Source of the DNA: Escherichia coli
GTDB lineage: Bacteria; Pseudomonadota; Gammaproteobacteria; Enterobacterales; Enterobacteriaceae
DNA length: 64,000 bases
Direction: 5' to 3' (one strand)
Assembly (NCBI RefSeq): GCF_024502345.1
Contig: NZ_JALDNN010000001.1
Part shown: positions 47,001 to 48,128 of the stretch, in pieces
Numbering within the stretch: the stretch's first letter is position 1
How the letters are laid out: each line of letters opens with the position of its first letter
Made by a program: the position numbers

Positions 47001-48128
47001 CTACCTGGACAGGTCGTTAATCAGAATTGCGAGCCTGTACCACAACCTGCACGAATCCACTGCAACAGCTGTTGAAAAGCCGGAATGTACTCTTCATTGC
47101 AAACATTTCAGGGATGAAGTGAAGATGAATTGAGACGTAGTATCCACACCAAGCCGGCGTTATCCGGTGAGGCGCAATGTTGCGTGGGCTTTATCCCTGG
47201 TGGCATTGGTTGCTGGAAAGAGAAAACCCCCGCACGTTGAGAGGTAAAACCTGACAACAGAACGGGGGCTAATCTTGAAACCAGACACTTCAAGAATAGC
47301 CGCAAAATGTTGTCATTACAACAAGGCGGCTATATGACGCTCGCGCAGTTTGCCATGACTTTCTGGCACGACCTGGCGGCACCGATCCTGGCGGGAATTA
47401 TTACCGCAGCGATTGTCGGCTGGTGGCGTAACCGGAAGTAAGGTGAAAACGGGCGTCAGGCTGCCGTGATGGCAATATGCGCCCGAAACCGGCCGCAGGG
47501 GTAACAGCCTGCGGCCATTTTTGTCTTTATCACTTCCACAAGTAAATATTGGCAACCCGAGCTGGAAGCATCATCCAGAGCACTCATGAAACGACTGTAA
47601 CAGCTGTTGAAAAACCGGAATGCACTCTTCATTGCAAACATTTCAGGGATGAAGTGAAGATGAATTGAGTCGTAGTATCCACACCAAGCCGGCGTTATCC
47701 GGTGAGGCGCAATGTTGCGGGGGCTTTATCCCTGGTGGCATTGGTTGCTGGAAAGAGAAAACCCCCGCACGTTGAGAGGTAAAACCTGACAACAGAACGG
47801 GGGCTAATCTTGAACCATCAACAATTCAAGAATAGCCGCAAAATGTTGTCATTACAACAAGGCGGCTATATGACGCTCGCGCAGTTTGCCATGATTTTCT
47901 GGCATGACCTGGCAGCACCGATCCTGGCGGGAATTATTACCGCAGCGATTGTCGGCTGGTGGCGTAACCGGAAGTAAGGCGAAAACGGGCGTCAGGCTGC
48001 CGTGATGGCAATATGCGCCCGAAACCGGCCGCAGGGATAACAGCCTGCGGCCTTTTTTGTATCCGGCACCCATGAAAAAAGTCTTAACGCAGAACGCTAA
48101 GACTTTATTTTTCAAGCAAAAAAGATTA

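Follow-up and report, generated by a model that had tools for sequence, protein, structure and literature searches.

The region between chaA and kdsA in the analysed stretch of Escherichia coli DNA (64,000 nucleotides, here called the window) almost certainly represents the LDR (long direct repeat) array of the E. coli chromosome in an allele with two units, which are tandem type I toxin-antitoxin modules. Descriptions of the Ldr/Rdl system go back to 2002, and the two-unit array is a common allelic state of this already known system. An earlier note on this DNA had placed two tandem Ldr/Rdl units between chaA and kdsA; direct repeats, Pfam and Rfam searches and the equivalog families of the flanking genes agreed on this organisation. 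A long direct repeat of ~530 bp was found in tandem between the two genes, syntenic with LDR-A/B/C of E. coli K-12. The array and its flanks are laid out as follows.

45826..46929, plus strand: chaA (sodium-potassium/proton antiporter), left flank; NCBIfam NF007895 equivalog, 776.7 bits, and RefSeq annotation of near-identical loci
46983..47517, plus strand: LDR unit 1, loop variant a, with a diverged 5' segment (46983-47058) and a conserved core (47059-47526)
47518..48062, plus strand: LDR unit 2, loop variant b, in which 1 nt is inserted compared with unit 1; its core is 47595-48062
47527..47594, no strand assigned: inter-unit spacer, which is the 5' segment of unit 2 and occurs once per unit junction (alignment)
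48126..48980, minus strand: kdsA (3-deoxy-8-phosphooctulonate synthase), right flank; NCBIfam NF009109 equivalog, 517.1 bits

A repeat search revealed two families of direct repeats, 46983-47279/47518-47814 (87%) and 47285-47524/47821-48060 (97%), with start-to-start spacings of 535 and 536 bp. The cores 47059-47526 and 47595-48062 were 96.7% identical, with 15 differences, in a gapped alignment that included the K-12 units. The 76-nt segments preceding the cores (46983-47058 and 47518-47593) share only 54% identity, yet none of 20,000 shuffles reached this value (shuffle mean 26%), which indicates that the true unit is ~535 bp long. Together with the repeat spacing, this upheld the unit length given in the earlier note. 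Unit 1 starts near 46983, soon after the chaA stop codon at 46929. Tandem Repeats Finder gave no output for the LDR region because the longest period it considers is 500. The possibility that a third unit had been hidden by the earlier reading of the boundaries was addressed over the whole 64-kb window by Rfam at the gathering threshold and by motif searches with up to three mismatches, both of which gave exactly two units.

Each unit contains one short open reading frame (ORF) followed by an intrinsic terminator.

47334-47441, plus strand: ldr-1 ORF, 35 aa, identical to K-12 LdrB (translation; Pfam Ldr_toxin, 91.6 bits)
47870-47977, plus strand: ldr-2 ORF, 35 aa, with I9/G29 (translation; Pfam Ldr_toxin, 87.7 bits)
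47491..47524 (hairpin 47491-47516), plus strand: ldr-1 intrinsic terminator, 9-bp stem with 8 G-C pairs, T run
48027..48059 (hairpin 48027-48052), plus strand: ldr-2 intrinsic terminator, 9-bp stem with 8 G-C pairs, T run

Translation of ldr-1 gave MTLAQFAMTFWHDLAAPILAGIITAAIVGWWRNRK, and ldr-2 encodes the same peptide with the substitution T9I. The ldr-2 peptide (WP_000170954.1 in RefSeq) differs from LdrB by T9I and from LdrA and LdrC by S29G; it carries isoleucine 9 as LdrA/LdrC do and glycine 29 as LdrB does. The Pfam family Ldr_toxin (PF13940, cut-off 27 bits) covered residues 1-35 of 35 in both peptides, whereas NCBIfam returned no family for these 35-aa peptides. In the terminator scan, seven terminator-like sites were found in the region against 1.9 expected from shuffles, and the alignment revealed conservation of the terminator across genera. 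Two further statements of the earlier note, namely that the units encode one 35-aa Ldr peptide each, differing by T9I, and that each unit ends in a strong intrinsic terminator, were thereby confirmed by translation, the Pfam matches and the G-C-rich stems followed by T runs.

The earlier note expected each Rdl antisense RNA on the minus strand, ahead of its ldr ORF, and Rfam placed both of them there. The RNA and promoter features are listed below.

47221-47286, minus strand: Rdl-1 antisense RNA (Rfam RF01813 rdlD, 91.4 bits, full length 1-66)
47756-47821, minus strand: Rdl-2 antisense RNA (Rfam RF01813 rdlD, 83.6 bits, full length)
47138-47143, plus strand: putative -10-like box TAGTAT of the ldr-1 mRNA, from conservation
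47673-47678, plus strand: putative -10-like box TAGTAT of the ldr-2 mRNA, in the same register as in unit 1
47293..47321, minus strand: putative Rdl-1 promoter with -35 TTGTAA (47321-47316), 17-nt spacer and -10 TATTCT (47298-47293)

Both matches exceeded the RF01813 gathering score of 50. Each Rdl lies opposite the 5' untranslated region (5' UTR) of ldr, 47-48 nt upstream of the ATG of its own ldr, as an antisense RNA to this region. Rdl-1 and Rdl-2 are identical save for the 5'-most 7 nt. The predicted fold of Rdl-1 has a free energy of -26.7 kcal/mol (z -4.5; Rdl-2 likewise z -4.5), and for both RNAs a long stem-loop with a single-stranded 5' tail was predicted.

The limits of the transcripts were approached by an alignment of the window units with K-12 LDR-D, the D-type units of E. 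whittamii and Citrobacter sedlakii and the unit of Pseudocitrobacter vendiensis. Conservation starts abruptly at CGTAG(T/A)ATCC (47136-47146) and stops at the T run of the terminator, limits which fit a putative ldr-1 mRNA of ~375 nt reaching from ~47150 to 47524. For the putative Rdl-1 promoter, the +1 position would lie seven nt downstream of the -10 box; the two boxes match at 4/6 and 4/6 positions, and the block is conserved across units and genera. A sigma-70 consensus scan of the region yielded zero promoters at its threshold, and the Rdl-1 promoter went unreported because a match of 4/6 and 4/6 lies below it. The ldr and Rdl promoters are thus candidate sites, weak matches placed by conservation and by reading of the sequence.

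Folding of the ldr leader from the Rdl target to the AUG predicted three hairpins (z -5.9 and -5.7). Predicted hairpin 1 is the mirror image of the Rdl stem, hairpin 2 is a 7-bp CUUGAA/UUCAAG stem with a loop of 9-10 nt, and hairpin 3 is formed by AUAGCCGC...GCGGCUAU and encloses the ldr Shine-Dalgarno sequence, which would be sequestered in this modelled structure. The Rdl target includes a conserved TTG. The ORF starting from it in unit 1 has 20 codons (47275-47337, plus strand) and closes with ATGA at the start codon of ldr-1. Unit 2 (47810-47977, plus strand) has a 1-nt insertion that sets the TTG in frame with ldr-2, giving a possible extended form of 55 aa. The TTG frame is in frame with the toxin in ldrD and several other units and closes early in others. 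We therefore do not claim conservation of a coupled leader ORF 'ldrX', since its reading frame relative to ldr shifts among units and species; the nucleotide conservation around the TTG is explained equally well by the Rdl promoter and the Shine-Dalgarno hairpin, so that these comparisons speak neither for nor against the leader-ORF model.

Sub-threshold matches to the Rfam family 'sok' (RF01794; 22.9 and 27 bits, gathering 59) were observed at 47186-47336 and 47719-47872 on the plus strand. They cover both ldr leaders and stop exactly on the ldr AUG, but are probably not meaningful; being below the gathering threshold, they were rejected as evidence of homology.

These features suggest the following course of events for each unit. 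An ldr mRNA of ~375 nt would be transcribed from the plus strand between the TAGTAT -10-like box and the intrinsic terminator and would encode a 35-aa single-pass membrane peptide. A divergent promoter within the ldr leader would produce the 66-nt minus-strand Rdl, whose complementarity to the ldr 5' UTR, 47 nt ahead of the start codon, is perfect. Pairing of Rdl with the ldr leader would leave the toxin untranslated, and the duplex would be a substrate of RNase III, by analogy with tested K-12 units. Ldr, if made, would reach the inner membrane, where it is thought to form pores, and the K-12 literature would predict collapse of ATP synthesis and growth arrest. Toxicity, repression by Rdl and action at the membrane are thus proposed for the window units by analogy with LdrD/RdlD and LdrA of K-12, and the I9/G29 peptide of unit 2 is likewise a putative toxin.

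As to these precedents, overproduced LdrD is toxic and RdlD relieves the toxicity; the Rdl overlap comprises the 5' UTR without the ribosome-binding site, and hok/sok-like control via the leader ORF ldrX was proposed but not confirmed (PMC4147584). Double-stranded ldrD-rdlD RNA was captured in vivo as an RNase III product in K-12 (PMC7373196). LdrA was described as a 35-aa inner-membrane peptide which is presumably pore-forming and inhibits ATP synthesis, and rdlA RNA translationally represses it (PMC12643268).

In K-12 MG1655, three units (ldrA/rdlA, ldrB/rdlB and ldrC/rdlC) are located between kdsA and chaA, as the earlier note had stated, so that the reference does not share the two-unit state of the window. 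Both loci agree in position, orientation relative to the flanking genes and a unit length of ~535 bp, at 97.8-98.6% identity, and the unit 1 peptide is identical to LdrB. They differ in the number of units, three against two.

The distribution of unit number was determined among complete E. coli genomes, 5,425 of 5,426 of which were matched by a whole-locus query. In a spread sample of 40 records from this search, which formed three consecutive blocks, two units were present in 11 rows (three of them O157:H7) and one unit in 10; the remaining 18 rows showed 80% coverage and had mostly three units, one of them being a two-unit array with an IS200C insertion. All O157:H7 records in the samples carried two units. 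A 68-nt probe from the inter-unit spacer (47527-47594) occurred at 6,487 places in 4,064 of the 5,426 genomes, and in a sample of 60 rows 24 records had one spacer and 36 had two. Solving the spacer-probe totals gave ~1,640 genomes with two units (30%), ~2,420 with three (45%) and ~1,360 with at most one (25%), in agreement with the spread sample of the whole-locus search. K-12 is, by this rough census, no universal reference for unit number.

The closest locus was that of PapRG-04-4 (99.8%), and O157:H7 PV15-279 reached 99.2%, with the same two units in both over 1,701 bp. The O157:H7 and PapRG-04-4 arrays share with the window their architecture and both peptides (WP_000170963.1 and WP_000170954.1) at 99.2-99.8% identity, and RefSeq annotates both peptides as Ldr family toxins in near-identical loci. 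Differences from these arrays are essentially none, except that unit 1 of PV15-279 has a 6-nt deletion in Rdl which is absent from the window. This deletion lies in the Rdl stem (722-781 of the extracted locus) and lowers the score to 66.6 bits compared with ~91; the unit may have a weakened antitoxin beside an intact ldr ORF. In strain 4621 (3984-4442 of the extracted locus) and in two other matches, an IS200C transposase gene was found between the last LDR unit and kdsA.

The statement that copy number is reduced in the window consequently holds relative to K-12 only, since two units are common in E. coli, at ~30% of complete genomes, and also present in two other Escherichia species. Unequal crossing-over between the repeats, which had been offered as the cause, is a reasonable mechanism, and a common polymorphism of one, two or three units most plausibly arises from unequal crossing-over together with gene conversion; the mosaic of unit variants is compatible with either direction of change.

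The most variable spot of the unit is the 9-10 nt loop of predicted leader hairpin 2 (47278-47290 and 47813-47826), which at the same time forms the extreme 5' tail of Rdl and holds 6 of 19 differences between the window units. Three variants were distinguished, namely a (AACC-AGACAC), b (ACCATCAACAA) and c (ACCA-GAACAA), each of which also occurs in another Escherichia species. Their order in the arrays, read from the chaA side, is given first, followed by their occurrence in complete E. coli genomes as determined with variant-specific probes.

Window: a,b
O157:H7: a,b
PapRG-04-4: a,b
Escherichia sp. E1V33: a,b
K-12: a,a,c
CEC15: a,b,c
Strain 4621: b,c
E. whittamii: c,c

Loop variant a: 5,215 places in 3,738 genomes
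Loop variant b: 2,740 places in 2,701 genomes
Loop variant c: 3,847 places in 3,803 genomes

The variant probes sum to 11,802 units, which agrees with the spacer census. Variants b and c were almost never found twice in one genome, and count arithmetic gave ~1,480 arrays with two a units, taken as K-12-like a,a,c, and ~950 a,b,c arrays. K-12, with a,a,c, is devoid of the loop b of window unit 2, and no K-12 unit combines I9 with G29. A rule that adjacent units must differ in loop variant was considered and discarded, as ~1,480 genomes carry a twice.

One can speculate that the loop is a recognition determinant by which each Rdl prefers its own ldr mRNA, so that tandem units would be regulated separately rather than redundantly. 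The idea draws on the concentration of differences in the loop, on the existence of three discrete variants, of which b and c hardly ever occur twice in one genome, and on the Sib/Ibs precedent, as Sib RNAs tell cognate from non-cognate targets (PMC2943612). The frequent a,a,c arrays count against a strict own-unit rule, and we regard such specificity as unlikely. Variation in the loop and the Rdl 5' tail nevertheless offers a testable handle on insulation between tandem copies of type I toxin-antitoxin modules. Beyond that and the census of unit number, the finding has little import other than correct annotation; RefSeq already lists both Ldr peptides and the array of two units for hundreds of genomes.

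A scan of one genome per species with a conserved Rdl 17-mer gave 28 loci, only 8 of which are real (Enterobacteriaceae), the rest amounting to what chance would produce for a 17-mer in 298 Gb. In E. whittamii and Escherichia sp. E1V33, two units were found between chaA and kdsA, and one unit in E. coli E69 and P. vendiensis; D-type units occur between bcsG and yhjV in several species. The P. vendiensis unit between chaA and kdsA indicates that the locus is older than the genus Escherichia. Its ldr (1443-1547 of the extracted locus) has an in-frame stop at codon 31, which points to decay in this species, and its Rdl still scores 85 bits. In E. whittamii (5303-6063 of the extracted locus), the two units encode identical peptides, both have loop c and show 22 differences, which crowd into the 5' part of the core (47066-47145 in window register), a pattern suggesting that the units have been partly homogenised by gene conversion. 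E1V33 carries two tandem LDR-D-type units between yhjV and bcsG (3778-4479 of the extracted locus), where K-12 has one; hence, the second Ldr locus also varies in copy number.

Among the E. coli units, a chaA-side type and a kdsA-side type can be recognised, and the middle unit is of the chaA-side type in K-12 and of the kdsA-side type in CEC15. A unit tree, informative sites and variant counts were used to polarise the change in copy number. By one account, the two-unit array is the older state, three-unit arrays such as that of K-12 are lineage-specific expansions, and the window has lost no unit. This is a serious possibility to which we give somewhat less than an even chance. Both E. whittamii and E1V33 have two units at the locus, in E1V33 with a followed by b as in the window, and three-unit arrays exist in at least two compositions (a,a,c in K-12 and a,b,c in CEC15), which points to more than a single origin. 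E69 has one unit with its 5' part of type 1 and its 3' part of type 2, and this unit looks like the reciprocal crossover product of a two-unit array. However, all three variants are found in other Escherichia and ~950 E. coli genomes have an estimated a,b,c array, and therefore an old a,b,c array that lost c fits equally well. Moreover, window unit 1 resembles K-12 unit C in its left flank and K-12 unit B in its ORF block, as a deletion between C and B would yield, a resemblance that is based on few differences, most of them private to K-12 units. The unit types themselves have modest bootstrap support (53-80%). Taken as a whole, the mosaic of unit variants would fit loss, gain and gene conversion equally well.

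The reading of the region as two complete modules was also weighed against artefact and decay. Near-identical tandem repeats of 535 bp are a general risk in short-read assemblies, so that a longer array might have been collapsed during assembly, although nothing direct points to it. Such a collapse is extremely improbable, as complete genomes (PapRG-04-4 and several O157:H7) show the a,b architecture with its flanks at 99.2-99.8% identity, count arithmetic assigns two units to ~1,640 complete genomes, and 15-19 positions, the number varying with the alignment, separate the two units without a chimeric signal. Decay, by which one or both units would be relics that no longer work as toxin-antitoxin modules, has parallels in the stop at codon 31 of P. 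vendiensis ldr and the 6-nt deletion in the unit 1 Rdl of O157:H7 PV15-279; besides, the literature assigns no clear physiological role to chromosomal Ldr/Rdl (PMC4147584). The window units each have an intact ORF, terminator and -10-like box, both Rdl are full length and far above the Rfam threshold, and ldr-1 encodes exactly the LdrB peptide of K-12, all of which makes decay very improbable here.

Among known systems, the experimentally characterised LDR-D (ldrD-rdlD, between bcsG and yhjV) shares with the window units the leader, an antisense RNA against the 5' UTR, a 35-aa ORF and the terminator, with conserved blocks from the -10 box to the terminator. It differs in locus, in the sequence of the hairpin loop and in its peptide, LdrD being 57-60% identical to the window peptides. 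The hok/sok systems of plasmid R1 and the chromosome are likewise of type I; their toxin is a small membrane peptide, their leader is long and structured, and their antisense RNA leaves the ribosome-binding site of the toxin uncovered. A controlling leader ORF such as mok has been proposed for ldr too ('ldrX'). In contrast, the peptide families are unrelated, the frame of the putative leader ORF varies among Ldr units, and Rfam sok scored only 23-27 bits on the ldr leaders compared with the required 59. The ibs/sib modules of E. coli resemble the array as tandem small-toxin and cis-antisense modules in one intergenic region; they belong to another toxin family, and the overlap with the toxin gene lies in the coding region of ibs for Sib but is confined to the 5' UTR for Rdl. 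Fst of the RNAI-RNAII system (par of pAD1) has been proposed as a member of the toxin superfamily of Ldr, the two having in common a conserved tryptophan that follows the transmembrane helix and a C-terminus that is charged, but it is found in Firmicutes and its antisense RNA lies opposite the 3' end instead of the 5' end.

Elsewhere in the window, two tRNA genes (29933-30014 and 30052-30133, plus strand) are followed by an RtT element (30184-30315, plus strand; Rfam RF00391, 134 bits). This tRNA-tRNA-RtT order at 29933-30315 resembles the known tyrT-tyrV-RtT locus of E. coli.
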